Source: a plasmid. Taken from it: 64,000 nt of DNA. The translations under genes and the position numbers were made by a program. The notes beneath the pieces were generated by a model that had not been told where the DNA came from, did no database searches, and saw nothing but the letters and a program-made list of their open reading frames with translations. The stretch lies in sequence record NZ_CP020429.2. One strand, 5' to 3'. Positions 16,400-61,333 of this stretch are shown piece by piece (positions within the stretch are counted from its first letter, which is position 1; each line of letters starts with the position of its first letter).

Positions 16400-17520
16400 G
16401 CGTGAAGCGTAGGAAATTCTCCTACGCTTTTTTTGTATCTTGAATTGTCAAATTAAGTGCATACTTTCCCCGTAGAATATTTCATAAGGTGTTTTCCAGT
16501 TAAGACATTTTCGTGGCCTATTATTAAGTTTGTTCTCCCACAGCTGAATAGTCTGATTATCAACCAATGTTAGATCACTCCCTTTTGGAAAATATTCTCT
16601 AAGTAATCCATTCGTGTTCTCATTGGTTCCTCGTTGCCATGGAGCATGAGGGTCAGGAAAATAGACTTCAATGTTCAATTGATCGCTCAATTTCTGATGA
16701 TACGTGAATTCTTTCCCTCTATCAGGAGTTACTGTATGCTTGGTCAAGGGTTCTAACATTTTTACCATAGCTTCTATTACCAACTTGCTTTTTTTGACAG
16801 CTACCTTCCGGATTTTTAGAAAACGAGAATATCGGTCAGTTAGAGTCACTAAACAAGCTTTTCCAGTTTTACCTGCAACAGTATCAGCTTCCCAATCTCC
16901 TATTCTAGTTCGGTTATTAGCATTCTCTGGTCTTTCGTGAATTGTATGAGATATAGAGATTTTCCCTCTATTTTCGACATAACCTTTTGTATGACGTGTT
17001 TTACCACGATGACGGAGCTTTCGAATGACACCACGAGCACCATGAGATAGTGAGTTATCATCAAAATGCCCTCTGTAAATGGCTCTATAGATTGTTTGAT
17101 AACTAATAATAGTTCTTCCATACTCTAATCGCAACCGACCTTCTATTTCTTCGGGAGACCATTGGTAATCGAGAAATAGATGTTTGACGGTATTGCTTAA
17201 ATTGTGATCTATTTCAAGCATACGTTTCCGCCCACAGTGTGATTTAGCCATATGGTAAGATTCCTGTGCATGACTTGGAGAATAGCTTCCTTCTTTTAGA
17301 TGTCGTTTCCACTCACGACTAATACTAGACGGATGACGATGAAGTAATTTAGCAATTTGAGAAAAATTTAGGCCTTGCGTACGGTAAACGAGAATACTTT
17401 CACGCTCGTCTATGGTAAAATGATGGTAGCTCATAAGATTTCCTTTCGTAACTAGTTCGTTCAATTCTATTTTACTAGAAAATCTTATGAGTTTTTATTG
17501 TGCACTTATATTGTATATTC
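16400..17520 (-). mobile_element. IS30-family insertion sequence (boundaries approximate)
   Basis: single transposase ORF with N-terminal HTH and DDE core; size about 1.1 kb. Confidence 0.7.
16448..17464 (-). CDS. IS30-family transposase (alt. start 17434)
   Basis: HTH FSQIAKLL...; DDE motifs WEADTV / DRG / NTNGLLRE. Confidence 0.85.
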   Translation of the reverse strand: MNELVTKGNLMSYHHFTIDERESILVYRTQGLNFSQIAKLLHRHPSSISREWKRHLKEGSYSPSHAQESYHMAKSHCGRKRMLEIDHNLSNTVKHLFLDYQWSPEEIEGRLRLEYGRTIISYQTIYRAIYRGHFDDNSLSHGARGVIRKLRHRGKTRHTKGYVENRGKISISHTIHERPENANNRTRIGDWEADTVAGKTGKACLVTLTDRYSRFLKIRKVAVKKSKLVIEAMVKMLEPLTKHTVTPDRGKEFTYHQKLSDQLNIEVYFPDPHAPWQRGTNENTNGLLREYFPKGSDLTLVDNQTIQLWENKLNNRPRKCLNWKTPYEIFYGESMHLI

Positions 17521-17606: not shown

Positions 17607-17699
17607 ATTCATACAACAAGTGATGGGTAGAATAGCCTGTCACTTTTTTTCAGCACGCGCGTGAGTAGGACATCGTGTAACTTTTAAACACAAAAAACT
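17607..17699. repeat. repeat family A, copy 1 (contains GTGATGGG..CCTGTCAC hairpin + T-run terminator)
   Basis: about 90% identical to 29664-29768 and 59568-59680. Confidence 0.8.
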
Positions 17700-17973
17700 C
17701 TAAGCAGGCAGAGCCTGCTTAGAGTTTTTGTTGCACTATGTTTTACAATTTATCTCTTAAAATAAACTTTGTTCATAATGGTTACCTCCTACACTTTTCA
17801 ATATAAGTATTGAAGAAAATGAATAAGACCAATCAATCGTTACCACTTCAATTTTATGCTCCTTGATTGTCTTAATGTAATAAATATCTTCAAGAGCAAA
17901 CTGATAAACTCTAGAATTTGTCTTAAGTGATAGAAAGTTCATTTGATCTCCCTTGAAAACAAGTGATTATTTG

Positions 17974-25700: not shown

Positions 25701-25940
25701 ATTATAGGGCATAGACGACTTTAATGACTTTGGGCTAAAGTATAGTCGTAAAGTTTATTATGTATTATAAGATAATACATTGTCCTAATAAGGCGATGTA
25801 TAGAGGCAATCGTATGAGGCTTAGTTGAAGTTGTCTGCGATTGTCTTTTTCGTTTCTCATAGAAATCTGAGATATGGCAAGGATTGGTATGGCTAGCTGA
25901 AGCGATATTGTGAATGCACTTGAACAAGATTTTTCTGGCA
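25700..25940 (-). pseudogene. 3' fragment of IS110-family transposase gene
   Basis: encodes ...CIHNIASASHTNPCHISDFYEKRKRQ... matching C-terminus of full copy at 31986-33242. Confidence 0.7.
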
Positions 25941-26150
25941 TATGAGTATCAGTTTCAAAAACAAGAGAAATAATGATGTTAGGGTCTTTAATTCCGATTA
26001 ATTCTGTGGTATTCTTAATAAGTCTCATAAGTTCTTCCTAATGATGGTTTGGTTGCTTTTCATTATAGTTCTTATGGGACTTTTTGTCTGCATTCAAAAA
26101 GCTCTATAATCTCTACAGTGGTTTTACCCACTACAGAAATTATAGAGCCG
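25940..26150 (-). pseudogene. 5' fragment of ISL3-family element (first 29 codons + left IR)
   Basis: MRLIKNTTELIGIKDPNIIISLVFETDTH plus IR GGCTCTATAATTTCTGTAGTGGGTAAAACC; junction with IS110 fragment inside ORF. Confidence 0.7.
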
Positions 26151-26173
26151 ATAAAAAACGTAACGATAAGGAT

Positions 26174-27379
26174 TCAATTGTTATTCAATAATTTATCTTT
26201 AAAGTAGTTGAAGAAAGTTTTTTTAGCGATAACACTCACTACTTTTCCCTGCATACCATAGGTAAGATTTTCTCTATCTTGTGATGTTACATTGACTTTA
26301 GCGGTTACTTTGAAGAAGTTACCGTTTTTTGTTTCTGTTGTAGCTTTATCTAGTGAGACAATCTCTCCTTTTATAACTGTAGGAGTTTTTCCAACGGTAT
26401 TTAGTGTAAATCTTACAGTTTGTTGTTTTTTCAATTGGTTGATATAGTTTGAGTTGACATAGTATGTTATGGCTACATTTTTAGCTTCAGAAAGATTAGG
26501 ATAAATTTGTCCAATAACAGTTCCTTGAGGTATATAAGATTCGCCTTTGATTTGACTATTGAGATGTAGGACACCATTTGAGTTAGCGTACAGGCTAGTT
26601 GCTTCTTTTCTGATATTAGCTTGTTCAAGTTGGGCTTGAAGACTTTCTTTGTCTTTATTGACTTGATTAAGCTGTTCTTGAGCTTGTGATACTTGCTGAT
26701 TTCGCAGTGTCTCTATTTGTGAAGAAGCGCTATTATCGTAAGTTCCAGTGGTTACATTACTAGAAAGCTTCAGATTAAGATTGTCAATGTCTGATTGTGG
26801 TTCTTGATATTGGTTGACCTGTGTTTGTAGTTCTGTTATTTGTTTAGGAATACTAGAATTAGCTTTATTCACACTTTCCTCTTGCTTTGCAACTGTGACA
26901 TTGGCTTGATTAACTTGGCTAGTAATAGTAATCGCTTGGTTTAAAAATGCATTGATTGTGCTAGAGTAGCCAAATTCATCATTATCTCCGAAAAGATTCG
27001 TCCCTTGTTTTAAACTGTTAATTAACGTCTCTAAAGCAGCAGCTTGTCTATCATCTCTATCTATTTGCTGCTGAATACTATTACTCTGAGAAGCTTCGAG
27101 CTTATCAGAGTATTTAACGAGAAGGTCTCCTTTTTTTACTGTCTTATTATCTTTAAGATTGTTAGTTGAGATAATATTATTACTAGTAGATTGAATAACC
27201 TCGATTACTTTTGTTGGCGTGATTTCCCCAGTACTTGTTACCGTTATTTCTGTATGAGCAAACAAAGAAAATAATACAATGAATAAGACCAGTAGCGTCA
27301 AAGGTAGCACGAGTATAGTAGCAAAGTTATGATAACGACGTTGGTAGAACTCCGCTGATTGAAATAAGTGGTTGTTCAT
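26174..27379 (-). CDS. bacteriocin secretion accessory protein (BlpB/ComB/LcnD, HlyD-like)
   Basis: N-terminal TM, long coiled-coil, C-terminal beta domain; downstream of C39-ABC gene. Confidence 0.8.
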   Translation of the reverse strand: MNNHLFQSAEFYQRRYHNFATILVLPLTLLVLFIVLFSLFAHTEITVTSTGEITPTKVIEVIQSTSNNIISTNNLKDNKTVKKGDLLVKYSDKLEASQSNSIQQQIDRDDRQAAALETLINSLKQGTNLFGDNDEFGYSSTINAFLNQAITITSQVNQANVTVAKQEESVNKANSSIPKQITELQTQVNQYQEPQSDIDNLNLKLSSNVTTGTYDNSASSQIETLRNQQVSQAQEQLNQVNKDKESLQAQLEQANIRKEATSLYANSNGVLHLNSQIKGESYIPQGTVIGQIYPNLSEAKNVAITYYVNSNYINQLKKQQTVRFTLNTVGKTPTVIKGEIVSLDKATTETKNGNFFKVTAKVNVTSQDRENLTYGMQGKVVSVIAKKTFFNYFKDKLLNNN

Positions 27380-27389
27380 AAAACTCTCC

Positions 27390-29528
27390 TTACTTGAATA
27401 AATGGTAGTAGAAGCCTTGTTTATTGATCAATTCTTGGTGACTACCTTCTTCAATTAATTTTCCTTTGTCAAGGACAATAACACGGTCAACCTGTTTAGC
27501 GATACTTAGTCTATGTGCGACAAAAATAATTGTTTTATCTGTTAGCTGCATCAGATTATTGATGACTTTTTTCTCTGTTAAAACATCTAGACCGCTTGTA
27601 GCCTCATCAAGAATCAAAATAGGAGCTTGGGTTAGTAAAGCACGTGCTAAAGCTAAGCGTTGTTTCTGTCCACCTGATAAGCCAGCTCCATCAGATAGTT
27701 CTGTCTGATAACCAAGGGGCATAGCTTCAATATCTGCTCGAATTTCCGCAATTTGACAAGCCATAAGGATATCTTCTTGAGTAATGTCTGGACTTGCTCC
27801 TAAGGTGAGATTGTCTAAAATAGATCCTGAAAAAATATATGATTGTTGTGGAAGGTAGTTAATGTACTGACGGAGTTGCTTTTTATCAATCATTTTCAAA
27901 TCCATATTACCCAGTCGAATATTGCCTTGGTTAGGCTCATAAAAGTTTACAATCATCTTTGCAAGTGTCGTTTTACCAGAACCACTGATTCCAACTAAAC
28001 TGACTTTTTCTCCTTGTTTTATAGTTAAATTGAGGTCACTTAGAGTGTAGGTCCCAAATCCATATCTGTAAGACACATCATGAAAAGTGATGTTACCAGA
28101 AAGTTTTGACGTCATACTAGTTGTGCCTTCAAATTCAGAAGCAACGAGATAAACTTCATTAAGACGTTTATTAGCAACCTTAGCAGATTGCAACTTTGTT
28201 TGAAGATTAATAATATTTTCAATAGGATTTGTAAAATAAGATAGCAAAGTATTGTAAGTGATGAGTTGACCGATTGAGATTTTACTATCCATCACTAAGC
28301 TAGCGCCGAACCATAAAATAGCAACATTTAAAATGAGTTGAGCACCGTGCTTTAATGAAGTTTGGACATTTTCATATATGCTTAGTTTGAAAGATTTATC
28401 GAGATAATCAACAAACTCGCTATCAATTTTTTGGTAACGCAATTCCTCACTAGTTAGTGATTTAATCGTTTCAATACCATTGATATCCTCTATAATAGCT
28501 GAGCTAACCATGGCATTACTTTGCATCACATCATGGTTCATCTTTTCAAAAGGCTTGAGAAATGCAAAAATAATGACTGTATAAATCGGTAAAGCTACGA
28601 GTGTCAAAAGAAATAGCTGTATATTTTGAAGCACTAGTACACTACCGACAATAAAAACGATACTAACATCTAGAAAGAGGGATAGGATAGTTGATGCCAA
28701 AGCATCTATGATGGAGTTAGCATCTGTAAAACGAGAGGTAATCTCCCCAGTTCTCCTAGTTGCAAAGAAAGACATAGGTAGTGTAAAGATATGGCGGATG
28801 TAGGATAAAATGACATCTATTGTCAGTCGTTGGCTAAGCACTCTTAATAGATAGGACTGGGAGAATGCCATGAGCTGCTGCAGGATATAGGTGATGACAA
28901 GTCCTAGAGAAATAATGCCTAGAGTTGATTTCATATTATTAGGAATGTACACATCCAAAATTCCCTGTAAATAATAAGAACCAACAATATTGACCAAAGT
29001 GACAAGCAAGCTAGCTAAAACAATATAGGTAATTAGTGTTTTTTGCTTTATGATTAAAGGGAGAAAACTTAAAAGACCGTTTTTCTTATCCTTGTGTGGC
29101 TTGTAACTAGGAGCTGGTGCTAAGAAAATAGCAACACCTGTCCATTCCTGCTTAAAGCGCTCCTTAGACATTTTAGTAACTTTTACACTCGGATCTGGAT
29201 CACCAATAATCAGATAATCTTTCTTAGCTTTATAAACAACATAAAAATGTTGCAATTTCCTTTCTTTATTGACATGGACAATGAACGGATAAGGAATATC
29301 CGTCATATCAAACAATTCCATATTTGCCTTAATTGCCTTGGTTTCAAATCCCATTTTTTTGGCAGCTTCAGTAATACCTAGGGCAGTAGTACCCTCTTTT
29401 GTCGTTTTTGCAAGTTCTCGAAGATGAGCTAGTGAGAAGTCAGAACCGTAGTGTTTGGCAATGGAGGCAAGGGCAGCGACACCACAGTCACGCATATCCA
29501 TTTGAGCAACATAAGCATACCGTTTCAT
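27390..29528 (-). CDS. peptidase-C39 ABC transporter for GG-leader peptides (BlpA/ComA family)
   Basis: N-terminal QMDMRDCGVAAL C39 motif, 6-TM domain, Walker A GISGSGKTT, signature LSGGQKQR, Walker B ILILDE. Confidence 0.9.
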   Translation of the reverse strand: MKRYAYVAQMDMRDCGVAALASIAKHYGSDFSLAHLRELAKTTKEGTTALGITEAAKKMGFETKAIKANMELFDMTDIPYPFIVHVNKERKLQHFYVVYKAKKDYLIIGDPDPSVKVTKMSKERFKQEWTGVAIFLAPAPSYKPHKDKKNGLLSFLPLIIKQKTLITYIVLASLLVTLVNIVGSYYLQGILDVYIPNNMKSTLGIISLGLVITYILQQLMAFSQSYLLRVLSQRLTIDVILSYIRHIFTLPMSFFATRRTGEITSRFTDANSIIDALASTILSLFLDVSIVFIVGSVLVLQNIQLFLLTLVALPIYTVIIFAFLKPFEKMNHDVMQSNAMVSSAIIEDINGIETIKSLTSEELRYQKIDSEFVDYLDKSFKLSIYENVQTSLKHGAQLILNVAILWFGASLVMDSKISIGQLITYNTLLSYFTNPIENIINLQTKLQSAKVANKRLNEVYLVASEFEGTTSMTSKLSGNITFHDVSYRYGFGTYTLSDLNLTIKQGEKVSLVGISGSGKTTLAKMIVNFYEPNQGNIRLGNMDLKMIDKKQLRQYINYLPQQSYIFSGSILDNLTLGASPDITQEDILMACQIAEIRADIEAMPLGYQTELSDGAGLSGGQKQRLALARALLTQAPILILDEATSGLDVLTEKKVINNLMQLTDKTIIFVAHRLSIAKQVDRVIVLDKGKLIEEGSHQELINKQGFYYHLFK

Positions 29529-29624: not shown

Positions 29625-29662
29625 GGAGACTGATGTTAGTATGATTTTATGGACACGTTTAT
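29625..29662. repeat. solo IS3-family terminal IR remnant
   Basis: TGATGTTAGTATGATTTTATGGACACGTTT matches left end of IS3 remnant at about 22870-22900. Confidence 0.6.
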
Positions 29663-29663
29663 T

Positions 29664-29768
29664 TGTTTGGGTAAAATTCATACAACAAGTGATGGGTAGA
29701 ATAGCCTATCACTTTTTTTTCAGCACGCGCGTGAGTAGGACATCATGTAACTTTTAAACACAAAAAAC
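29664..29768. repeat. repeat family A, copy 2
   Basis: see 17607-17699; includes 3' coding remnant ...FVWVKFIQQVMGRIAYHFF of gene at 59356-59643. Confidence 0.8.
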
Positions 29769-30225
29769 TAGAGCGATGGCCCTAGTTGTAAAGGAGGTTT
29801 GTTCACATCTGGGTTTATAGGAGATTATGATGTGAACGGGATTGATTAGGAGTCTCTATTTCTATTAGGAGGATTAGAGACAGAAAGGATTAGTTTTTGA
29901 GTGTAGTTTCATCGAACTACAAGAAGATTATATCAATTTATGAGATAGGATACAATGGACTTAGGGGGTGTCACACCCCCTATAATTAGAGATCGACTGA
30001 CTTATGGTATAGTAGTATGTTTTATTGTGTGCCATCCTATAATTAGACTAATAATTAATATAAACAATAGTTTAGGAGTGACAGAAGCAGTAATGAATGA
30101 AATGAAACAGGACAATGTCATACTATGATATATGAGATACTAGGTCTATAGGGCAAATTAGCCAGGGGATGACTTTTATTATCTATGGTATAATAAGATA
30201 AATTTGGAGTTGTAGAGGTGAGCAT
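29769..30225 (+). repeat. repeat family B, copy 1: structured leader (hairpins, 19-bp perfect palindrome AGGGGGTGTCACACCCCCT at 29963-29981)
   Basis: near-identical to 54873-55273 and 59681-60040. Confidence 0.85.
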
Positions 30226-30843
30226 TTGGAAGAAAATAGACCTGATTTTAGAGATATAAAATCGTTTGAAGAATTTAACAGATACTACTGGTATCGAGAA
30301 GAGCTTTCACAAATTTGTAAGTACCTTGGATTAGAATACAGATGTACAAAAAAAGAATTAAATCATATTATAGAACAATATTTTAAGGGAAATAGAGTAG
30401 AAAAATTTTTGAGGAAAAGAAACAAAAATCAAACCGAAATAATAACCCTAAATACATCATTACTTGAATGTGGGTTTTCCTTTAATCAGAAATTTCGTGA
30501 TTATTTTTCAGCTGTAACAGGTGTTAATCCGTTTAAATTTAATGCTGATATGGCAACAGCTTGGCGAAAAGTAAAACGGGACAACAACATAAATTTTACA
30601 ATACAAGATATGATTAAAATATACTATGGAGAGTCAGACTACGCCAAGTATGATAATTCAGCTTGCCAATGGAATCAATTTCTAAAAGACTTTTGTGCAG
30701 ATGAATTTAGCAATCATTACTCCAACAAGTTAAAAGTTGCGGCTATCCTTTGGAAAGAAGTTAGAGATTCAAAAAATAAAAAAATTTATTCACGGGGACT
30801 TCTAAAAGAATATAGCTACAAAATAGAGGAGTACTGTAAGTAA
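30226..30843 (+). CDS. hypothetical 205-aa protein (TTG start, N-terminal SAP/HeH-like helix pair), copy 1
   Basis: RBS gaggtgag; protein 100% identical to 55274-55891. Confidence 0.6.
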   Translation: MEENRPDFRDIKSFEEFNRYYWYREELSQICKYLGLEYRCTKKELNHIIEQYFKGNRVEKFLRKRNKNQTEIITLNTSLLECGFSFNQKFRDYFSAVTGVNPFKFNADMATAWRKVKRDNNINFTIQDMIKIYYGESDYAKYDNSACQWNQFLKDFCADEFSNHYSNKLKVAAILWKEVRDSKNKKIYSRGLLKEYSYKIEEYCK

Positions 30844-30989
30844 ACAACTTCAAGTTTGTCGAACGGAATATAAAGTATTAAAGACGATAGAAATAAAAAA
30901 TCTATCAAAAGATTATTTGAAATGTACGAAGAAAAGAAACAAAAGAATGAATGACTATGGTATCCTTTTGGTAGCTAAACAGACAAAAT

Positions 30990-31030
30990 ATCTTGTTTTT
31001 TACCCACTACAAATATTATAGAGCCGTTAT
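30990..31030. repeat. solo ISL3 left-IR remnant
   Basis: TTTTACCCACTACAAATATTATAGAGCC. Confidence 0.6.
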
Positions 31031-31316
31031 TTCAAGACTATCTTTTATTATTTAGTAGTTTCTGTATGAAGTTGAATGGAATAATTATTTTGTTAGAGAG
31101 TAGATTATAAGGTTTTGATAGAGGATGAGTTAAGTTGTTTGACATATGATTATTAAGAAATAATCCAATATGGTGACAGTCACATCTTGTCTAAAACGTT
31201 GCTATATAAGGTTTTTTAGAGTATAATAAACCTAAAAACGGAATCATTTTGAAGCTGAAGTCATGCTGAGATTAATAGTGCGATTACGAAATCTGGTAGA
31301 AAAGATACCCTACGAG

Positions 31317-31616
31317 GTTTTAGAGCTATGTTGTTTCGAATGGTTCCAAAACTAGGCTTCGTTTGTTAGTAACATACGAGATGTTTTAGAGCTATGTTGT
31401 TTCGAATGGTTCCAAAACAGGGAAGAACAAGATTTCATCAATCCAGATGTTTTAGAGCTATGTTGTTTCGAATGGTTCCAAAACAAGAGATTCACGCCAC
31501 CGACCGTATCGCTGGTTTTAGAGCTATGTTGTTTCGAATGGTTCCAAAACTGTATGCGTGATTGGAACACTGGCGAAAGGGTTTTAGAGCTGTGTTGTTT
31601 CGAATGGTTCCAAAAT
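31317..31616 (+). CRISPR. type II-A-like CRISPR array, 5 repeats x 36 bp / 4 spacers x 30 bp, no adjacent cas genes
   Basis: repeat GTTTTAGAGCTATGTTGTTTCGAATGGTTCCAAAAC (1 mismatch to S. thermophilus CRISPR3 repeat as I recall it); terminal degenerate repeat ...GCTGTG...CAAAAT at 31581-31616. Confidence 0.9.
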
Positions 31617-31964: not shown

Positions 31965-33430
31965 AATAATACGGCATAGACAGCCTTATCGATTTTGGGT
32001 CAAAGAGTAATCGTAAAGTTTGTTATGCGTAATGAGGTAATACATTGTTCGAATGAGACGATGTATAGAGGCAATCGTATGTGGCTTAGTTGAAGCTATT
32101 GTCGATTGTCTTTTTCGTTTCTCATAAAAGTCAGCGATATGGCAGGGATTGGTATGACTAGCTGAAGCGATGTTGTGAATGCACTTGAACAAGATTTTTC
32201 TGGCATAGGGATTACCTCGTTTAGTGATGTGTTCCTTGGCGAGAAAGTTCCCAGATTCGTAGTGTTTCAGGTCAATGCCAATAAAAGCGTTGATTTGATT
32301 GGTAGACTGAAAGCGACGAATATTTCCCAACTCGCCAATGATAGATGTCGCTGTGGTTTCTGCGATGCCAGGAATTGACCGTAAGATGTCATACTCTGGT
32401 AAAGGCTGAGCTAGAGCTACCATGTCGCTTAAGACAACTTGTCTGCGTTCAGAAAGACGAAGCAATTCTTGAGCATAGTAACGAACCTCTTCAAGCATTG
32501 GAGAGGTTTTCTTGACCGCACAATAAGACTGATTAGCTAGTTTTATAAGCTTATCTACTAAGTAAGTTACACGTTTTTCAGAGATGCGTTTTGATGTAGA
32601 CTGACGGATAATCTCACACAAGTTACTTTGAGATAGGCTTAATACAAACTCTTTGCATGGAAAAGCCATCACTAAGTTCCAATATTGCTCTCCAGTAGGT
32701 GTGGATAATAGATTTTCCAATTCAGGAAAGGTGACTTGTAGAACCTTGTGCAGACGGTTTTTAGTTCGAACAAGATCTTCTGTCATATTTTGATAGAAAC
32801 GGCTTAAATCACGCAGGTGTTGATAAACTTCTTCCTGCACGTAAGTTGGTTTACGATTGTGCACAAGCTGAGATTTAGCCAACTTTTCAGCGTCAATTTT
32901 ATCTGTTTTACGAACTCGCAGACTGTCCAATTGCTTCTTAGCTTCCAGTGGATTTAGCCGTGTGTAAGCGTAACTATATTCCTCAAGAAAGGCTTGAAGA
33001 CGTCGAGAATAGACACCTGTAGCCTCAAATATAATCTCAGGGTTATGAACAGTTTTCAAGTCGCCCAACAGGCGATTGAATCCAATGGCATCATTGAGTA
33101 TGGTGTAGCCATGAACCTTCTCACCGTTGACTAAAATGGCCACCTCAGAACTTGTTTTACTGACATCAATTCCAAATACTGCACGCATGACATTACCTCT
33201 TTTGTCTTGAATAATTCCATGTTTTAGTGATTTTATTTTCAATACGCGACGTTTAGCGTCCTACATACTTTGATCAAACTCCACCTAAAACAAGGTGTCT
33301 TGCCAGTTTGTCAAGCGACGTCTAGCGCCATAGAGCCCTACGACTTTACAAGACACCACTACTTTAACATAAAGAAAAAGTAGTGAGTACTCTCTCCCGT
33401 CGGAGATTTCTTCACTACTAATCTTAGTAT
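31965..33430 (-). mobile_element. IS110-family insertion sequence (no IRs; boundaries approximate)
   Basis: single 418-aa transposase, long 5' leader. Confidence 0.7.
31986..33242 (-). CDS. IS110-family transposase
   Basis: N-terminal DEDD (RuvC-like) domain VFGIDVSKT..., C-terminal Tnp_20-like domain. Confidence 0.85.
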   Translation of the reverse strand: MKIKSLKHGIIQDKRGNVMRAVFGIDVSKTSSEVAILVNGEKVHGYTILNDAIGFNRLLGDLKTVHNPEIIFEATGVYSRRLQAFLEEYSYAYTRLNPLEAKKQLDSLRVRKTDKIDAEKLAKSQLVHNRKPTYVQEEVYQHLRDLSRFYQNMTEDLVRTKNRLHKVLQVTFPELENLLSTPTGEQYWNLVMAFPCKEFVLSLSQSNLCEIIRQSTSKRISEKRVTYLVDKLIKLANQSYCAVKKTSPMLEEVRYYAQELLRLSERRQVVLSDMVALAQPLPEYDILRSIPGIAETTATSIIGELGNIRRFQSTNQINAFIGIDLKHYESGNFLAKEHITKRGNPYARKILFKCIHNIASASHTNPCHIADFYEKRKRQSTIASTKPHTIASIHRLIRTMYYLITHNKLYDYSLTQNR

Positions 33431-33432
33431 GT

Positions 33433-33470
33433 TTGTCAACTGTAGTGGGTGACGAAAAGCTAAAGTAAGA
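33433..33470. repeat. solo ISL3 right-IR remnant
   Basis: TTGTCAACTGTAGTGGGTGACGAAAAGCTAA. Confidence 0.6.
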
Positions 33471-33491
33471 CTAAAATCAAGAAAGGAACTT

Positions 33492-33956
33492 ATGATGTTT
33501 GTAATTGAAGAAGTCAAGAATGAAAATCAAAAAAAGGCAGTTGTCGCTGAGGTTTTGAAGGATTTGCCAGAATGGTTTGGAATCCCAGAAAGCACACAAG
33601 CCTATATAGAAGGAGCCACGACACTGCAAGTTTGGGCTGCCTATCAGGAGAGTGATTTGACTGGATTTGTAAGCTTGTCCTATTCTAGTGAAGATTGTGC
33701 AGAGATTGATTGTCTCGGCGTAAAAAAATCCTATCAAGGTAGAAAAATTGGGAGCCAATTGCTTGCTACTTTAGAGAGCGAAGCTCGTAAAAAAGTTGAT
33801 TATCTGCAGGTCAAAACAGTGGCAGAAGGTTCTAATAAAGATTATGATCGAACGAATGTCTTTTATCGCAGTCTTGGTTTTAAAAAGTTAGAGATTTTTC
33901 CACAGCTTTGGGGCTCTCAAAACCCTTGTCAGATTTTGATTAAGAAGCTTGAATAA
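33492..33956 (+). CDS. GNAT-family N-acetyltransferase
   Basis: motif A-like LGVKKSYQGRKIGSQLL. Confidence 0.65.
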   Translation: MMFVIEEVKNENQKKAVVAEVLKDLPEWFGIPESTQAYIEGATTLQVWAAYQESDLTGFVSLSYSSEDCAEIDCLGVKKSYQGRKIGSQLLATLESEARKKVDYLQVKTVAEGSNKDYDRTNVFYRSLGFKKLEIFPQLWGSQNPCQILIKKLE

Positions 33957-34117: not shown

Positions 34118-35530
34118 GATGTTGAATTACTTTGGATCCTTGTCAACTGTAGTGGGTGACGAAAAGCTAACATCTAGAGAGGACCTGATAGGTCTTCTCT
34201 TTTTTATGTTCAGAGTGATGAAAACACGCTTCCTAAAGTTAATAAAGTTTCTAAAACCGAAGCCCAGACGTTTGATGTCTTTGATAAGCTTATTGGTCCC
34301 CTCCAATTTTGCATTTGAGTAATGTGTTTCTAGTGCGTTTTTGATGTATTGTTTGTGTCTAAGAAAGGTTATAAAGACAGTTTTGAAGTAGTGATTGAGC
34401 TTGCTTATATTCTCCACTATTAACTCAAAAAACTCATCTACCCTCTTTTCTTGAAAGTGAAACAGCAACAGCTGATAGAGGTTATAATAGTTAGCGAGTT
34501 CTTCTGAGAAATTTAGTGTCTTCTTAACGACTTCATATGGACTTAAGGTTTGACCAAAGGTCTTCGAGTGAAATGACTTACAAGATAACTTACGGCTGTC
34601 CTTTTGGAAGAGTCTCCAGTGATTTTTCAAGGCTCGGTAGGGTAGTGACTTCTTATCAAATTGATTCATAATGGCAATTCTTGTCTTCAAAAAGGCTCGA
34701 CCAAGGTGTTGGATGATGTGGAAACGATCAATAATGATTTCGGCGTTTGGGAAAAGTCTACGAGCTAGTGGGATACAGGCTCCTGACATATCCATTGTAA
34801 TAAACTGCACTTTTTGGCGAACCTTCAATGGATACTTCAAAAAGTGGTTTCGAATAGTGGTTTGACGGCGATTATCAAGGATGGTTATGAGTTTGTTGGT
34901 CTCATAGTTTTGAGCCACAAAAGCGAGTTCACCTTTCTTGAACCCAAACTCATCCCAAGACATAACAGCTGGGAGCTTGTCATAATGTTCCTTGAAAGTA
35001 AACCGGTCAAGTTTACGATAGACAGTGGACCTCGCTATACGAAGTCTTCTGGCAATATCCGTTAGTGATGCCTTCTCAGTTAGAAGTTGAGCAACCTTTT
35101 GTCGGACAAGGTTGGAGATTTGGTGGTTTTTCTCAACAATTGATGTCTCAGCTACCGTGACTTTCTTACAATTTTTACACTGGAAGCGACGTTTTTTTTA
35201 GGCGTAGTAGTGTTGGAATTCCAGCTTGTTCGAGAAGAGGGATTTTAGAAGGTTTTTGAAAATCATATTTGATCTTCTTTCCTTTGCAATGAGGGCATGG
35301 TGGTGCAGGGTAATCCAGTTTTGCATGAATCTCGATATGAGTATCGGTTTCAAAAACAAGAGAAATAATAATGTTAGGGTCTTTAATTCCGATTAATTCT
35401 GTGGTATTCTTAATAAGTCTCATAAGTTCTTCCTAATGATGGTTTGGTTGCTTTTCATTATAGTTCTTATGGGACTTTTTGTCTGCACTCAAAAAGCTCC
35501 ATAATCTCTACAGTGGTTTTACCCACTACA
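34118..35530 (-). mobile_element. ISL3-family insertion sequence with frameshifted transposase
   Basis: IRR CCTTGTCAACTGTAGTGGGTGACG at 34135, IRL GGCTCTATAATTTCTGTAGTGGGTAAAACC at about 35495-35530; transposase split into 35175-35423 and 34127-34963. Confidence 0.8.
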
Positions 35531-36199
35531 GAAATTATAGAGCCAAAAAACTCTCGGAAATGTATTTCATGCGCCTTTTAGGTGTTTTTTTATTTTACTG
35601 TAAGTCATCTTTAACCTTAGGTTGCTATTTTTTCATGCGTTTGCTATACTAAAGACATAAATTGTTTAATTTATATCTATTTCACCACACCTCAAACGGT
35701 GAACTCATAGTCAAGTGACTAGAGAAAAGAGGAAACATGGAGGAGGATATGTGATTACTGATTCTGTCCCAGTGAAAAGCATACCGTGTTTAAGGGGTTA
35801 AAAGAGAGCGTACTCGCTTTTAGCTATCAGTTAAGCCATCAGACAGAAATAAGGGGCTTAACGCTTTGAAACACGTACGAGAAAATTGCCTTGAGTTTTT
35901 GAAAGGCTACAACAAACGTTATTAGCAAGTAAGCATAACGAGAAGTTTTTCCTATGGTTTGCCATAGGCACGCGCATCCTTGTTTTTTGAGACAAGGCTT
36001 GCCGGCTTCTTTGTTATGCTTTTTTTGTTTTGAGTTTGGGTAGACGGACAAAAAAGGAAGGCGACATCTCGATGTTTGGAGGAGAGGAACAGGTGTTCCC
36101 AAGTCTAAACTGTCGGCAAGCGGAGGAAAGGCTACGAATAAGTATTCGAGGCTTTCCAAGGCAACTTTACAACAACAACTTTAAAAAGGAGAAAAGCTT

Positions 36200-54639: not shown

Positions 54640-54800
54640 TTGGCTCTATAATTTCTGTAGTGGGTAAAACCACTGTAGGAATTATGGAGTCTATGTTTTT
54701 GTAGAAAAAAAGGCTCCTTGTCAACTGTAGTGGGTGATGAAAAGCTAACATCTAGAGAGGACCATATAGGTCTTCTCTTTTTGCATGTTCAGAATGATGA
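54640..54800. repeat. ISL3 left-IR and right-IR remnants in tandem (no transposase)
   Basis: GGCTCTATAATTTCTGTAGTGGGTAAAACC then CCTTGTCAACTGTAGTGGGTGATGAAAAGC. Confidence 0.65.
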
Positions 54801-54872
54801 AAATTCGTTGACTTATGGCAACGCTTTATATCAACTTTTTTTAAAAATATTTTTTTTTTTGCAAATAAAAAA

Positions 54873-55273
54873 CTAGGGCGAGGGCCCTAGTTGTAAAGGA
54901 GGTTTGTTCACATCTGGGTTTACAGGAGATTATGATGTGAACGGGATTGATTAGGAGTCTCTATTTCTATTAGGAGGATTAGAGACAGAAAGGATTAGTT
55001 TTTGAGTGTAGTTTCATCGAACTACAAGAAGATTATATCAATTTATGAGATAGGATACAATGGACTTAGGGGGTGTCACACCCCCTATAATTAGACTAAT
55101 AATTAATATAAACAATAGTTTAGGAGTGACAGAAGCAGAGATGAATGAAATGAAACAGGACAATGTCATACTATGATATATGAGATACTAGGTCTATATG
55201 GCAAATTAGCCAGGGAATGACTTTTATTATCTATGGTATAATAGGATAAACTTGGAGTTGTAGAGGTGAGTAT
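54873..55273 (+). repeat. repeat family B, copy 2 (56-bp internal deletion between CTATAATTAGA direct repeats; palindrome at 55068-55086)
   Basis: alignment by eye to 29769-30225. Confidence 0.85.
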
Positions 55274-55891
55274 TTGGAAGAAAATAGACCTGATTTTAGA
55301 GATATAAAATCGTTTGAAGAATTTAACAGATACTACTGGTATCGAGAAGAGCTTTCACAAATTTGTAAGTACCTTGGATTAGAATACAGATGTACAAAAA
55401 AAGAATTAAATCATATTATAGAACAATATTTTAAGGGAAATAGAGTAGAAAAATTTTTGAGGAAAAGAAACAAAAATCAAACCGAAATAATAACCCTAAA
55501 TACATCATTACTTGAATGTGGGTTTTCCTTTAATCAGAAATTTCGTGATTATTTTTCAGCTGTAACAGGTGTTAATCCGTTTAAATTTAATGCTGATATG
55601 GCAACAGCTTGGCGAAAAGTAAAACGGGACAACAACATAAATTTTACAATCCAAGATATGATTAAAATATACTATGGAGAGTCAGACTACGCCAAGTATG
55701 ATAATTCAGCTTGCCAATGGAATCAATTTCTAAAAGACTTTTGTGCGGATGAATTTAGCAATCATTACTCCAACAAGTTAAAAGTTGCGGCTATCCTTTG
55801 GAAAGAAGTTAGAGATTCAAAAAATAAAAAAATTTATTCACGGGGACTTCTAAAAGAATATAGCTACAAAATAGAGGAGTACTGTAAGTAA
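55274..55891 (+). CDS. hypothetical 205-aa protein, copy 2 (identical to 30226-30843)
   Basis: TTG start, same RBS. Confidence 0.6.
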   Translation: MEENRPDFRDIKSFEEFNRYYWYREELSQICKYLGLEYRCTKKELNHIIEQYFKGNRVEKFLRKRNKNQTEIITLNTSLLECGFSFNQKFRDYFSAVTGVNPFKFNADMATAWRKVKRDNNINFTIQDMIKIYYGESDYAKYDNSACQWNQFLKDFCADEFSNHYSNKLKVAAILWKEVRDSKNKKIYSRGLLKEYSYKIEEYCK

Positions 55892-56046
55892 ACAACTTCA
55901 AGTTTGTCGAACGGAATATAAAGTATTAAAGACGATAGAAATAAAAAATCTATCAAAAGATTATTTGAAATGTACGAAGAAAAGAAACAAAAGAATGAAT
56001 GACTATGGTATCTTTTTGGTAGCTAAACAGACAAAATATCTTGTTT

Positions 56047-56080
56047 TTTACCCACTACAAATATTATAGAGCCGTTAAAT
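56047..56080. repeat. solo ISL3 left-IR remnant
   Basis: TTTTACCCACTACAAATATTATAGAGCC. Confidence 0.6.
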
Positions 56081-56273
56081 CAAGCTTTTTTCGTTTCTAC
56101 TGAAACGTAATGACCCACTATTTAACCTCTATCATTTTTTATTTTGGTGAAGCCTAACTTAGTTTCTACTGAATAATCTTTTTCGGTCATAATAAAACAC
56201 TCCTGTTCATAGTTTTACTAGATCTCAACAGGAGTGTTATTTTTGCGTCTCAATTTATGTGTTCAGTGTCTAT

Positions 56274-57482
56274 CTACTTTTCTAGTAACCAATCTATGAT
56301 ATTTTTCTTCTCAATACCATTGTAATTTGCTGTTGGCTGAATCGTATCCATTGTTAATAGATATTTTGGGAATTGATCTTTAATGGCTTCTAGTGGTCTA
56401 AGTTCTCTGTCTAGTGTTTCTGGAGCAAGTGTTGTTTCACTGACCTGATAATAAACGTAGTGACCAACATCAGTTACAGCAACAAAATCAACCTCATACT
56501 TATCTAAATTACCAACATATACTTGTGAATATCTACGTCTCAATTCTAAATATACAATATTTTCCAAGATATGACCAATGTCTTCTTTGTGGTCTGGTAA
56601 TAAGAGATGCCGTAAACCTAAATCAACGGGATAATATTTTTCTAAGCGTTGCAATAATGCTCTACCTTTTACATCAAAACGTGGAACGGAATAAAAAAGT
56701 AAACTATCTGTCAAAGTTGTCAAATAATTTTCCAAAGTATTATGGGATATGGAAACATTTTGACTGACTAGGGTATTGCGAATCTTATTTGTTGATATTA
56801 AGCTACCTGTACTACTGAGAAGGGTTCTGACAATGCGCTCAATAATAGTAGGATTTGGATTTCCCAATCTAGTTACAATATCGTTTAACAGTATTGAGTT
56901 ATATATTCCTCTGAGATAGTCAATTTTTTCAGCGTAAGATGATGTTTGCAATAAGTAAGGGAAAGCACTAAATAGATAATTGTTAAAAATTTTTGTTGTA
57001 TTCAGATTCTCTGAGAGAGATTGACCTGATAGGTATTCTTCAAATGACAAAGGAAGAACCTCTATCTCAACATAACGCCCAGTCAAGTTTGTTGCTAATT
57101 GGCTACTCATAAAGTAGGCGTTAGATCCAGTCAAATAGAGGTCTACATTTGGTAAGATGAATAGACTATCTGCTACCAGTTCAAATTTTTCAACATGTTG
57201 AATTTCATCTAAAAAGATATAGTATGTTTTCTCTTCAACTAACCGCTCTTTTATATAAGTAAATAATGTTTGAAAATGTCGCAGTTCATAGTAACTCAAA
57301 TCTTCGAAATTGATGGATATAATCTGCTCCTCGTCTACCCCAGTTGCTAGTAATTCCTCTTTATAGAGTTGAAAAAGTACAGATTTACCAGCTCGCCTAA
57401 CTCCGCTCACAACTTTGATGATTTGTCGGTCACGATGTCTTCTTAAAAAGTCTAAATAATGTGGTCTTTTAATATAGTTCAT
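56274..57482 (-). CDS. AAA-family ATPase (AAA_14 + DUF4143-like)
   Basis: Walker A GVRRAGKS, Walker B YIFLDEIQ. Confidence 0.7.
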   Translation of the reverse strand: MNYIKRPHYLDFLRRHRDRQIIKVVSGVRRAGKSVLFQLYKEELLATGVDEEQIISINFEDLSYYELRHFQTLFTYIKERLVEEKTYYIFLDEIQHVEKFELVADSLFILPNVDLYLTGSNAYFMSSQLATNLTGRYVEIEVLPLSFEEYLSGQSLSENLNTTKIFNNYLFSAFPYLLQTSSYAEKIDYLRGIYNSILLNDIVTRLGNPNPTIIERIVRTLLSSTGSLISTNKIRNTLVSQNVSISHNTLENYLTTLTDSLLFYSVPRFDVKGRALLQRLEKYYPVDLGLRHLLLPDHKEDIGHILENIVYLELRRRYSQVYVGNLDKYEVDFVAVTDVGHYVYYQVSETTLAPETLDRELRPLEAIKDQFPKYLLTMDTIQPTANYNGIEKKNIIDWLLEK

Positions 57483-59355: not shown

Positions 59356-59643
59356 GTGCTAATTATTTTGTTATTAGTAGCATTTAAGGTTTTGTCGATT
59401 CTTTATGCTAGATTCTTAATAACTGAAGCTTTTAAATTCATTAATATAGCTGTATGGCATCCTATTTACTATGGAAAACAACTATCAGTTTTTAACAAGT
59501 TTTTATGGTTTTTGATGACTCCAATACTTTCTGTCATATTTGCTTTTTTTCTTGGTATTGTTATTCCGATATTTGTTTGGGTAAAATTCATACAACAAGT
59601 GATGGGTAGAATAGCCTATCACTTTTTTTCAGTATGCGCGTGA
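59356..59643 (+). CDS. small membrane protein; 3' end embedded in repeat family A copy 3
   Basis: 3 TM; C-terminus FVWVKFIQQVMGRIAYHFF recurs as non-coding remnant at 29664. Confidence 0.5.
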   Translation: MLIILLLVAFKVLSILYARFLITEAFKFINIAVWHPIYYGKQLSVFNKFLWFLMTPILSVIFAFFLGIVIPIFVWVKFIQQVMGRIAYHFFSVCA

Positions 59644-59680
59644 GTAGGACATCATGTAACTTTTAAACACAAAAAAACTA
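59568..59680. repeat. repeat family A, copy 3
   Basis: see 17607-17699. Confidence 0.8.
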
Positions 59681-60040
59681 GGGCGATGGCCCTAGTTGTA
59701 AAGGAGGTTTGTTCACATCTGGGTTTATAGGAGATTATGATGTGAACGGGATTGATTAGGAGTCTCTATTTCTATTAGGAGGATTAGAGACAGAAAGGAT
59801 TAATTTTCGAGTGTAGTTTCATTGAACTACAAGAAGATTATATCAATTTATGAGATAGGATACAATGGACTTAGGGGGTGTCACACCCCCTATAATTAGA
59901 GAACGACTGACTTATGGTATAGTAGTATGTTTTATTGTGTGCTATCCTATAACTAGACTAATAATTAATATGAACTATAGGTTTGGAGTGACAGAAGCAG
60001 TGATGATTGAAATGAAACAGAACAATGTCATACTATGGAA
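59681..60040 (+). repeat. repeat family B, copy 3 (truncated at IS3 IR remnant; palindrome 59873-59891)
   Basis: alignment by eye to copies 1 and 2. Confidence 0.85.
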
Positions 60041-60258
60041 TTCTGTCAATATTTTGGACACATTTTGGGAGAATTCCACATCTCTATTATGTTACTGATA
60101 GTGGTAAACAAATTGGTGTAGGTGGAACAACTACATCTAATCCTTCTAAACCATCAATTCCTAATAGTGGTGTTTATACTTTTAAAGGCCATTCAAGTAT
60201 CAAAGCAGAACCAAAGATTTCTGCACCTGAGTTGGCATATCCAGATGTAGGACATTGA
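60025..60258 (+). pseudogene. truncated SH3_5-family paralogue (C-terminal fragment only)
   Basis: ...GHSSIKAEPKISAPELAYPDVGH resembles 52967-53353 C-terminal half but ends prematurely. Confidence 0.5.
60037..60072. repeat. solo IS3-family right-IR remnant
   Basis: GAATTCTGTCAATATTTTGGACACATTTTGGGAG matches 21585-21620. Confidence 0.6.
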
Positions 60259-60318: not shown

Positions 60319-60463
60319 ATGAAGTATTGATTGCACTTATGTTGTAAAATAAATCTCTTAAAATGCCACACTGCCTTTATTATGCATATTCACATTTTTT
60401 GTTTTGATTTTATCCTTCTTAGTGATAAAATGATTTATGACTATTATATTAAAGAGGATAATT

Positions 60464-61333
60464 ATGAGTACATTATTAGCATCTAGAATAAAAAATAGAA
60501 GAAAAGAATTAAAGATGTCACAAAAAGAGTTGGCGGAAGGAATTTGTAAACAAGGACAAATTAGTCGGCTAGAAAATGGAGAATATATTCCTGGGTCAGT
60601 GCTTCTTTATGAATTATCTCGAAAATTAAAGGTTAGTATGGATTATTTCTTTGATGAGCAAATTTCAAGTGAAAGTAACGAACTCAACAATTTCAAAAAG
60701 TTATCAAAGACTTTTATTATGGATAGAGATTACGAGTCTTTAAATTACATCTATGAATTGGAAAAGGAAACCTCCCATCGTTTATCATTGTCAGATAAGA
60801 TATACATGGAATGGATTGAATCACTTATAGACTTTTACTTTTATCACAAAAAAGGAGATGGGATTTTTAAGTTGGAAAAAGCTATTAAGCAACTTAAAGA
60901 GACTGATATACACTATCTTCAAATTTTAAATAGTTTATTTAATTTCTATTATGAGACAGATAACTTGGATCGTTTTAAGGAAATTGAAAATGATTTGTCT
61001 GCAAGAGTTGAGCAACTGAGTTTAACAACAATAGAAGAGTTAGAATTAGCCATTAAGTTCAATTATAATTTAGGACGCTATTTATGGCTCCAGAGTAAAA
61101 CTGAAGAGGCTATTAAAAAACTAACTCTAACTATAAAATTATGTAAAGAGTTCAATTCGACTTATTTACTTGCAGATTTGTATCTATTATTAGGCAACAT
61201 TTGTGAAGATTTTTCCGATCAAAGTGAAGCTAGAAAATATTTTGATAATGCTCTCTATATCTACAGGCACCTAGATGACAATAAGGAAATGGCTTTAAGA
61301 GTTGAGCATTACATATCGAAGATGTTCAAATAA
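60464..61333 (+). CDS. Rgg/ComR-like (RNPP-family) transcriptional regulator
   Basis: N-terminal XRE HTH LKMSQKELAEGICKQGQISRLENGEYIPGSVLLYELSRKLKVSMDYFF, helical TPR-like C-terminal domain, about 290 aa. Confidence 0.75.
   Translation: MSTLLASRIKNRRKELKMSQKELAEGICKQGQISRLENGEYIPGSVLLYELSRKLKVSMDYFFDEQISSESNELNNFKKLSKTFIMDRDYESLNYIYELEKETSHRLSLSDKIYMEWIESLIDFYFYHKKGDGIFKLEKAIKQLKETDIHYLQILNSLFNFYYETDNLDRFKEIENDLSARVEQLSLTTIEELELAIKFNYNLGRYLWLQSKTEEAIKKLTLTIKLCKEFNSTYLLADLYLLLGNICEDFSDQSEARKYFDNALYIYRHLDDNKEMALRVEHYISKMFK

Follow-up and report, generated by a model that had tools for sequence, protein, structure and literature searches.

The stretch of DNA analyzed here (the window) is 64,000 nucleotides of a plasmid, sequence record NZ_CP020429.2. 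BLAST against annotated plasmids identifies it as a mosaic Streptococcus salivarius bacteriocin megaplasmid of rep_cluster_199, with pSsal-NU10, pSsal-YU10, pSAL813, pIKMIN-B501, and the ATCC 25975 plasmid among its relatives and backbone blocks that are 93–96% identical. An intergenic repeat is present in the window in three direct copies, and its 231-bp core, termed core B, is the subject of this report. Core B contains a candidate gene for a small RNA (sRNA) on the minus strand and a candidate divergent promoter that encloses a palindrome. Copy 1 has on one side a divergent gene for a C39-peptidase ATP-binding cassette (ABC) exporter (27390–29528, −) with its ComB/LcnD-like partner (26174–27379, −), and on the other side a gene for a protein of 205 amino acids (aa). 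The features are listed in Table 1.

Composition of the repeat

The three copies had been described in a sequence-only reading as one structured, non-coding element that twice heads an identical gene. Direct-repeat detection and pairwise BLAST confirm three direct, near-identical copies with a mutual identity of 96–99%. Copy 1 aligns with copy 2 in two segments, 29762–29990 with 54867–55095 (98.7% identity) and 30036–31036 with 55084–56084 (98.8%), and with copy 3 over 29660–30127 and 59570–60037 (96.2%). The repeat is not a single element. It is a composite of an upstream part (module A), core B, and a SAP-domain gene unit (module C), each of which is also found independently elsewhere.

The non-coding character of the element is upheld. 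Its 57-aa open reading frame (ORF) is deleted in copy 2 and meets a stop after 13 codons in pSsal-NU10-type homologues. A coding role was rejected for this ORF and for a second one of 77 aa on these grounds, and because the ORF is missing from loci with another downstream context. The deletion in copy 2 does lie between direct repeats, but it removes 57 bp and not 56, and the repeats are 12 bp in length (CCTATAATTAGA, beginning at positions 29979 and 30036).

The palindrome AGGGGGTGTCACACCCCCT is found exactly at 29963–29981, 55068–55086, and 59873–59891, against a chance expectation of 0.01 per window. It is perfect over the 19 bp first described, and its true extent is 10+1+10 bp. The three named hairpins, with arms GTTCACATC/GATGTGAAC, GTCTCTA/TAGAGAC, and GTAGTT/AACTAC, are all present (hairpin 1, hairpin 2, and the 5’ hairpin of Table 1). 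The minus-strand terminator is present as well and is followed by T6. Its stem in copy 1 reads CTAGAGC, not CTAGGGC as first given, and therefore includes a G·U pair on the minus strand. The terminator loop of copy 2 is GAGG.

Table 1. Coordinates of the repeat, its modules, the candidate sRNA, and the candidate promoters (positions are those of the window)
Feature	Coordinates	Strand	Remarks
Repeat, copy 1	29762–30225		module A extends it upstream to 29660
Repeat, copy 2	54867–55273		
Repeat, copy 3	59672–60037		upstream extension to 59570
Module A	29664–29761	+	3’ end of a ~95-aa membrane-protein gene; its terminator, 29687–29714; palindrome CACGCGCGTG, 29724–29733
Core B	29762–29992		231 bp; minimal part common to all 8 core-bearing finished megaplasmids, 88–96% identity
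Variable extension or leader	29993–30127	+	in the commonest downstream context (type D0); holds the second CCTATAATTAGA repeat, 30036–30047
SAP-domain gene unit (module C)	about 30180–30906	+	~0.72 kb; gene 30226–30843; own promoter TATGGTATAAT, 30181–30191
SAP-domain gene unit, second copy	55228–55954	+	gene 55274–55891
Candidate sRNA gene, copy 1	29762–29920	−	~159 nt; covariance model R1, 202.3 bits
Candidate sRNA gene, copy 2	54867–55025	−	R1, 201.7 bits; 98.7% identity to copy 1
Candidate sRNA gene, copy 3	59672–59830	−	R1, 205.8 bits
5’ hairpin of candidate sRNA	29903–29920	−	6 bp; G at 29920 is the first base
Linker after 5’ hairpin			AAUCCUUUCUG
Hairpin 2 of candidate sRNA	29852–29881	−	7 bp; loop UAAUCCUCCUAAUAGAAA; loop in minus-strand reading AAUCCUCCUAAUAGAAA
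Linker between hairpins 2 and 1			UCCUAAUCAAUCCC
Hairpin 1 of candidate sRNA	29801–29837	−	9 bp; loop CAUAAUCUCCUAUAAACCC; loop in minus-strand reading AUAAUCUCCUAUAAACCC
Linker between hairpin 1 and terminator			AAACCUCCUUUACAA
Terminator hairpin of candidate sRNA	29766–29787	−	followed by U6 or more (terminator scan)
Candidate promoter P(−) of the sRNA	29927–29955	−	−35 TTGTAT, 29955–29950; 17-nt spacer; extended −10 TGATATAAT, 29935–29927
Candidate promoter P(+)	29956–29986	+	−35-like TGGACT, 29956–29961; 19-nt spacer; −10 TATAAT, 29981–29986
21-bp palindrome	29962–29982; 55067–55087; 59872–59892		TAGGGGGTGT-C-ACACCCCCTA

The candidate small RNA and the candidate promoters

The candidate sRNA is read leftward through core B and comprises a 5’ hairpin, hairpin 2, hairpin 1, and a terminator hairpin. 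A minus-strand RNA of 164 nucleotides folds as these four hairpins with a free energy of −37.3 kcal/mol (z = −7.10), compared with z = −3.62 for its plus-strand complement. Among the homologues, the terminator consists of a 9-pair stem followed by T6–T11 and is found on the minus strand only. The terminator scan places it convergent with the plus-strand terminator of the upstream gene. In the annotated plasmids, the genes on both sides of the core are on the plus strand, and a minus-strand terminator at this site therefore needs a transcript that starts inside the core.

A candidate promoter for this transcript, P(−), was read from the sequence, and its predicted start is the G at 29920. The P(−) sites repeat at offsets of +25105 (copy 2) and +29910 (copy 3). 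In the 62 distinct homologues, the TG and five of the six TATAAT bases (TA.AAT) of the extended −10 sequence TGnTATAAT are invariant and the remaining base reaches 90% conservation or more; variation is seen at the N position and in the surrounding bases. The TTGT of the −35 box is conserved at the 17-nucleotide spacing.

Five CU-rich motifs are present in the candidate sRNA: UCCUUUCU, UCCUCCU, CUCCUAAU, UCUCCUAU followed by CAU, and ACCUCCUUU. Their predicted probability of being unpaired is 0.65–0.99. CTCCT is found four times, where the remainder of the window predicts 0.18 (P = 4e-5). ACCUCCUUU and CCUUUCU exactly match the established 3’ tail of the 16S rRNA of Bacillota, 5’-...CACCUCCUUUCU-3’. 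The loop of hairpin 1 is complementary to a Shine-Dalgarno (SD) sequence, a spacer, and an AUG. It is for this reason that a plus-strand AGGAG-ATGATGTGA mini-ORF was noted earlier; the letters are there, and they are merely the complement of the anti-SD/anti-AUG loop.

When the four hairpins are imposed on the homologues, 97% of cells are paired. One compensatory pair (A-U to G-C) is found in 12 sequences with both intermediates present, and the other pairs are nearly invariant. Columns that vary account for 19% of stem positions and 20% of CU-motif positions, compared with 51% of the other unpaired positions (Fisher p = 5.5e-5).

The minus strand was chosen on the basis of the terminator U-tract, the conserved extended −10 sequence, the lack of a conserved plus-strand promoter or terminator, and the fold statistics. 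Wobble pairs are equivocal and were excluded from the strand call. Of the structured leader or sRNA proposed earlier, the sRNA is thus the best reading, located on the minus strand and not as a plus-strand leader. A functional RNA on the plus strand would be either a GGA/AGGAG-rich decoy similar to the CsrB/RsmZ sponges or a structured 5’ leader. Read on that strand, the motifs become AGGAGG/AGGAGA in loops and linkers, which is a CsrB-like layout, and some substitutions are wobble-compatible on the plus strand only. We nevertheless hold such an RNA to be very improbable. With differing upstream flanks and a terminator at the end of module A, there is no conserved plus-strand promoter on that side; no plus-strand terminator is present, with only 3–4 T in the 8 bases past the palindrome; the fold z-score is weaker; and no CsrA-like ORF was found in the window by regular expression. 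CsrA is not known as a feature of streptococci.

The core was compared with known RNA families. At gathering score, no Rfam 15 family matches the repeat, in agreement with its earlier description as an unrecognized element; the only matches in the window are Srn266, CRISPR-DR22, and tRNA, all outside the repeat. Rfam searches of the repeat in E-value mode gave chance-level matches only. The sole resemblances, both weak and both to anti-SD-type sRNAs, are csRNA (RF02379; 20.9 bits, E = 4.3, minus strand 29763–29883, gathering score 57) and LhrC (RF00616; 18.1 bits, minus strand, gathering score 110). The defining features of the csRNAs are a CiaR box and, after it, a terminator, both in an intergenic region; csRNA9 on S. 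thermophilus pSt0 provides a plasmid-borne precedent (PMC8186281). The candidate shares with them an intergenic gene, an intrinsic terminator, stem-loops parted by unpaired anti-SD/anti-AUG stretches, and an expected action, the block of translation initiation. It differs in being longer (159 nucleotides, four hairpins, five motifs), in having a promoter with a GC-rich palindrome, and in its restriction to one megaplasmid family. Control by CiaR was rejected: the box TTTAAG-N5-TTTAAG (PMC8186281), with up to two mismatches, was not found near the three promoters, and the window total is 20 versus 30.6 expected.

Similar to LhrC of Listeria, the candidate has redundant CU-rich seeds in its loops and pre-terminator linker, and the cmscan alignment keeps the order of hairpin, linker, and terminator. 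The two are not homologous, their host clades differ, and the motifs are CUCCU/CCUCC in the candidate and UCCC in LhrC. By analogy, the candidate RNA would act like a csRNA- or LhrC-type RNA, yet it belongs to neither family. Full-text searches of the literature, both with sequence strings from the element and on the subject of S. salivarius megaplasmid sRNAs or repeats, gave no description of it.

Two other RNA-based systems were considered and rejected. A type I toxin–antitoxin pair with the convergent 95-aa gene is not supported, as the terminators do not overlap and the sRNA loops share no complementary 12-mers with the gene or its start region; a product of 95 aa is also long for a type I toxin. 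A trans-activating CRISPR RNA for the nearby CRISPR would need an anti-repeat, and none was found, the best alignment to 29650–30240 scoring 10–11 over 36 nucleotides. The CRISPR array itself (31316–31615) has five or more repeats of a type II-A-like sequence (GTTTTAGAGCTATGTTGTTTCGAATGGTTCCAAAAC) and is an orphan, cas genes being missing from its surroundings. It is located between the SAP gene and an IS110-family transposase (31986–33242).

The second candidate promoter, P(+), is back to back with P(−), and their −35 boxes abut. Its predicted start is at about 29992–29993. TGGA and T-A-..-A-T of its two boxes are largely conserved among the homologues. Homology to four mutually unrelated downstream contexts stops at 29992, which is 6 nucleotides past the P(+) −10 box and is where the predicted start falls. 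The first sizeable downstream ORF is co-directional with P(+) in most contexts and starts 78–405 nucleotides on.

The palindrome spans −43 to −61 relative to the predicted sRNA start and fills the P(+) spacer. Its left arm is conserved. In about a third of the homologues, the right arm changes from ACACCCCCT to ACATCTCTT by three C-to-T transitions (loci L055, L074, L087, L106, and others; columns 12–33 of alignment A2), which weaken the dyad and preserve G·T or G·U pairing on the plus strand only. The arrangement is similar to that of MerR-type promoters, in which the spacer is 19–20 bp: the dyad lies in a 19-nucleotide spacer and is centered within 1 bp of the spacer center. Unlike in those promoters, the dyad is degenerate in many homologues, the activity of P(+) is a prediction, and no MerR-family gene was found in the window by regular expression, a weak search.

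The palindrome had also been proposed as an Rgg/ComR-type operator, on account of an Rgg gene near copy 3. A regulator is present there (60437–61333), and its type is HTH_3 + TPR (RRNPP-type). It lies 546 bp from the copy 3 palindrome, and RRNPP regulators bind inverted repeats just upstream of a −35 box (PMC10518010), which is the placement of the palindrome at P(−). That the palindrome is an operator for this regulator is extremely unlikely, however. No RRNPP gene adjoins copies 1 and 2 or the core in the 8 finished megaplasmids, and conservation is lacking in one palindrome arm. The RopB-type operators defined by experiment, in S. pyogenes and on an S. salivarius megaplasmid, are AT-rich and have long, spaced half-sites (GTTACGTNT with a 7-bp spacer, and ATGTAACATATT with a 4-bp spacer for S. 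salivarius RopB; PMC10518010), compared with the GC-rich 10+1+10 dyad of the core.

Distribution, flanking sequences, and cargo

Core B was identified in 90 full-length instances comprising 62 distinct sequences with 88.7–100% identity, using small-ORF look-ups, a plasmid search, a genome scan, and a metagenome scan. It is present in 8 finished megaplasmids and in some 70 loci from metagenomes or genomes, is always intergenic, and has one to three copies per megaplasmid. Named sources are S. salivarius, a plasmid labelled ‘S. equinus’, and Streptococcus sp. A degenerate 36-mer pattern found 4 stretches in 2 genomes among 185,579 species genomes, and a 26-mer around the palindrome gave zero matches in the genome-collection scan. 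Covariance model R1 returned the three copies alone from the window, the next match being 17 bits. On 682 kb of related loci, all full-length matches scored 181–208 bits, and lower scores (115–164 bits) were confined to matches truncated by a contig end.

The flanks of the core can be sorted into nine upstream and seven downstream types, which reassort. Five upstream and three downstream types are present in the finished plasmids alone, and chimeric metagenome assemblies may account for part of the reassortment. On the upstream side, six or more unrelated flanks join the core at its A-run. On the downstream side, four mutually unrelated sequences, no more similar to each other than shuffled sequences, begin within one base of the junction after TTAGAGA at 29992. 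The extension beyond this position varies in length by locus and reaches to about 30063, to 30127, or beyond.

The ~95-aa membrane-protein gene, of which module A carries the 3’ end, is intact at 59356–59643. Module A is also found without core B at 17607–17697, where its A-run is followed by a different bidirectional terminator in place of the core (17607–17740). This may be where the core ancestrally stood in this plasmid, the site having since been rearranged. An IS30-family transposase (HTH_38 + rve; 16448–17464, −) adjoins this copy of module A. The 10-bp perfect palindrome CACGCGCGTG lies between the two convergent terminators, is also present near 17650 and 59640, and is retained in most upstream flanks even with unrelated sequence farther upstream. 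Another intergenic repeat with a terminator (TTGTCAACTGTAGTGGGTGA..., at 33427–33497, 34134–34204, and 54712–54782) sits directly upstream of the core in some plasmids (L035, L036, L051).

One explanation of these flanks is that core B is a junction at the DNA level. Its hairpins would be terminators or insulators, its promoters would serve adjacent genes, the minus-strand RNA would be functionless, and the core would be kept as a homology patch for recombination. The free reassortment of the nine upstream and seven downstream flank types agrees with this, as do conservation that is not above that of the backbone, the minimal covariation, and the different bidirectional terminator that follows the module A A-run at 17607–17740. 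We consider this explanation unlikely, because it does not account for an invariant TGnTATAAT aimed at a terminator 165 nucleotides away with no ORF between, for the 20-fold excess of exposed CUCCU, or for the avoidance of stems and motifs by sequence variation.

A second explanation is that of a mobile or site-specific unit, either a small, non-autonomous element bounded by subterminal hairpins, similar to the palindrome-associated derivatives of IS200/IS605, or one in which the palindrome and TATAATTAGAGA form the nick site of an HUH nuclease or relaxase, like an origin of transfer. Both ends of the core are sharp, as shown by the flanks at the A-run and at TTAGAGA, and the lack of terminal inverted repeats fits hairpin-ended elements. 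The three C-to-T changes in the palindrome arm keep plus-strand G·T pairing, arrays of two to three direct copies with 4.4–4.8 kb spacing recur, and some 3 kb upstream of the usual site there is a gene of the replication-relaxation family. The core resembles the linkers of mosaic phages and plasmids and the miniatures derived from IS200/IS605 in being a short, sharp-edged unit with reassorting flanks, subterminal hairpins, and no inverted termini.

Such a unit is nevertheless distinctly unlikely. There are only one to three copies per plasmid, and among the species representatives the pattern scan detected the core in two genomes only. Neither junction has a conserved target sequence, no HUH transposase or TnpA gene is associated, and there is no sign of transposition. 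The right boundary is nested in the commonest context (231, 300–317, 366, and 439 or more nucleotides), as ordinary recombination predicts. No empty site was found, and metagenome assemblies may add chimeric joins. The core was also examined as the end of a known insertion sequence (IS) or miniature inverted-repeat transposable element with defined termini. No terminal inverted repeats join the ends of the 231-bp core or of the longer repeat, no target-site duplication or constant target was seen at the core ends, and the many dispersed copies typical of the miniature elements are lacking.

The sequences downstream of the core carry variable genes, referred to here as cargo. The SAP-domain protein is the cargo of copies 1 and 2; copy 3 has an RRNPP regulator with an ABC exporter behind it. 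In other plasmids, the cargo includes HamA of the Hachiman defence system (PADLOC, E = 2.9e-99; L087, 5243–6061) and the candidate defence protein PDC-S02 (E = 2.4e-52; L037, 3457–4350), which is also found at L035, L036, L038, and L106 and is annotated in plasmids as ‘ribonuclease D’. Several further cargo proteins have no family match. PDC-S01 is located in the window at 56274–57482 (−), near copy 2. The core is therefore the head of variable, partly defence-related cargo slots.

A combined possibility is that the 231-bp core is the standard head of these slots, which it would both regulate, through a palindrome-gated promoter and the anti-SD sRNA, and assemble, by site-specific joining after TTAGAGA, perhaps by means of an HUH nuclease or relaxase. 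This would be an integron-like system without an integron integrase, with HamA, PDC-S02, and the nearby PDC-S01 among its cassettes. We regard it as speculative and very doubtful.

The 205-aa product of the module C gene matches Pfam SAP_new25 (E = 2.5e-16). Module C DNA has 97–98.6% identity to sequence in Veillonella atypica OK5 (CP020566.1; PMC5454190) and in a GH97/sortase context, both of which lack core B. The same gene does stand behind copies 1 and 2, as first described. Since the SAP unit is found without the repeat in these two contexts, the pairing is a juxtaposition of two independent units and the repeat does not head the gene as part of one element. The exact 205-aa protein is listed in 5104 blocks of the assembly collection. 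More diverged copies of the unit occur in S. agalactiae, on a plasmid (83%), and in S. suis, close to a prophage end (75%). On inspection of the ends of the SAP unit, no recombinase, inverted termini, or duplication was seen.

At copy 3, the RRNPP regulator is followed by the ABC exporter at 61691–63280. A possible 31-aa peptide ORF (MIEMKQNNVILWNSVNILDTFWENSTSLLCY) is present upstream of the regulator at 60003–60098, its ribosome-binding site being poorly positioned. An ORF for an 8-aa leaderless peptide was looked for in the window and not found.

Elsewhere in the window, the two gathering-score matches to Srn266 (RF02822; 26040–26149 and 35435–35544) lie within a 216-nucleotide repeat (25940–26155 and 35335–35550). 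This repeat borders ISL3-like fragments, and the Srn266 match may be part of an insertion-sequence end.

Proposed function and significance

The best explanation, to which we give an even chance of being correct, is that core B represents a new, narrow-range family of plasmid anti-SD sRNA with a divergent, palindrome-bearing promoter, located at a recombination joint of mosaic megaplasmids. This explanation and the others set out above are not fully mutually exclusive. Core B would be a self-contained regulatory module of the S. salivarius bacteriocin megaplasmids. The extended −10 promoter would drive a trans-acting minus-strand sRNA of ~159 nucleotides that begins at the 5’ hairpin and ends at the intrinsic terminator facing that of the upstream gene. 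The five single-stranded CU-rich motifs would mimic the 3’ tail of 16S rRNA, and the RNA would thus pair with the SD and start-codon regions of its targets and repress their translation. P(+), back to back with the sRNA promoter, would point into exchangeable cargo such as the SAP-domain protein, the RRNPP regulator with its ABC exporter, HamA, PDC-S02, and others. The palindrome in its over-long 19-nucleotide spacer is the presumed site of a dimeric regulator.

Two candidate targets for the loop of hairpin 1 lie in the window: the initiation region of the 53360 gene, with 15 matching positions out of 16, and that of the minus-strand ORF starting at 22409, with 13 out of 13.

Several observations weigh against the proposed sRNA and its promoters. 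With homologues that are all 88% or more identical (effective sequence number, 1.02), the diversity does not suffice for a genuine covariation test, and covariation amounts to one pair. Neither the pair-count nor the pair-type measure is separated by shuffles. The wobble-compatible changes are split between the strands, with about 6 events that fit the minus strand and 3–4 that fit the plus strand, and the hairpin stems, being palindromic, are strand-blind. The core is no better conserved than the plasmid backbone (93–96% identical).

With respect to targets, duplex energies over 174 start regions single out no target, the top scorers use long interior loops, and complementarity to an SD and AUG is easily found by chance. 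A generic −35/−10 scan listed neither P(−) nor P(+), both of which were read directly from the sequence. The −35 box of P(+) is weak, and the SAP unit has its own promoter. The right arm of the palindrome, beside the −10 box, has the altered form in about a third of the homologues. No candidate regulator, and no MerR or CsrA partner, was found in the window; this is a weak negative, as the search was by regular expression alone (in six frames for MerR).

The megaplasmids of S. salivarius carry the bacteriocin loci behind commercial oral probiotics such as strains K12 and M18, and little has been described of how these plasmids are regulated or how their mosaics evolve. Downstream of the core, the sequence behaves like a hotspot for defence genes and cargo. 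The core marks a point at which cargo, anti-phage genes included, is swapped between plasmids, and it is therefore a practical landmark for new cargo. If core B is merely a recombination patch, it would be of local interest only. If the proposed sRNA is real, a conserved plasmid RNA with five anti-SD copies would let the plasmid modulate the translation of host or plasmid mRNAs and would enlarge the small group of regulatory RNAs of streptococci by a new family.

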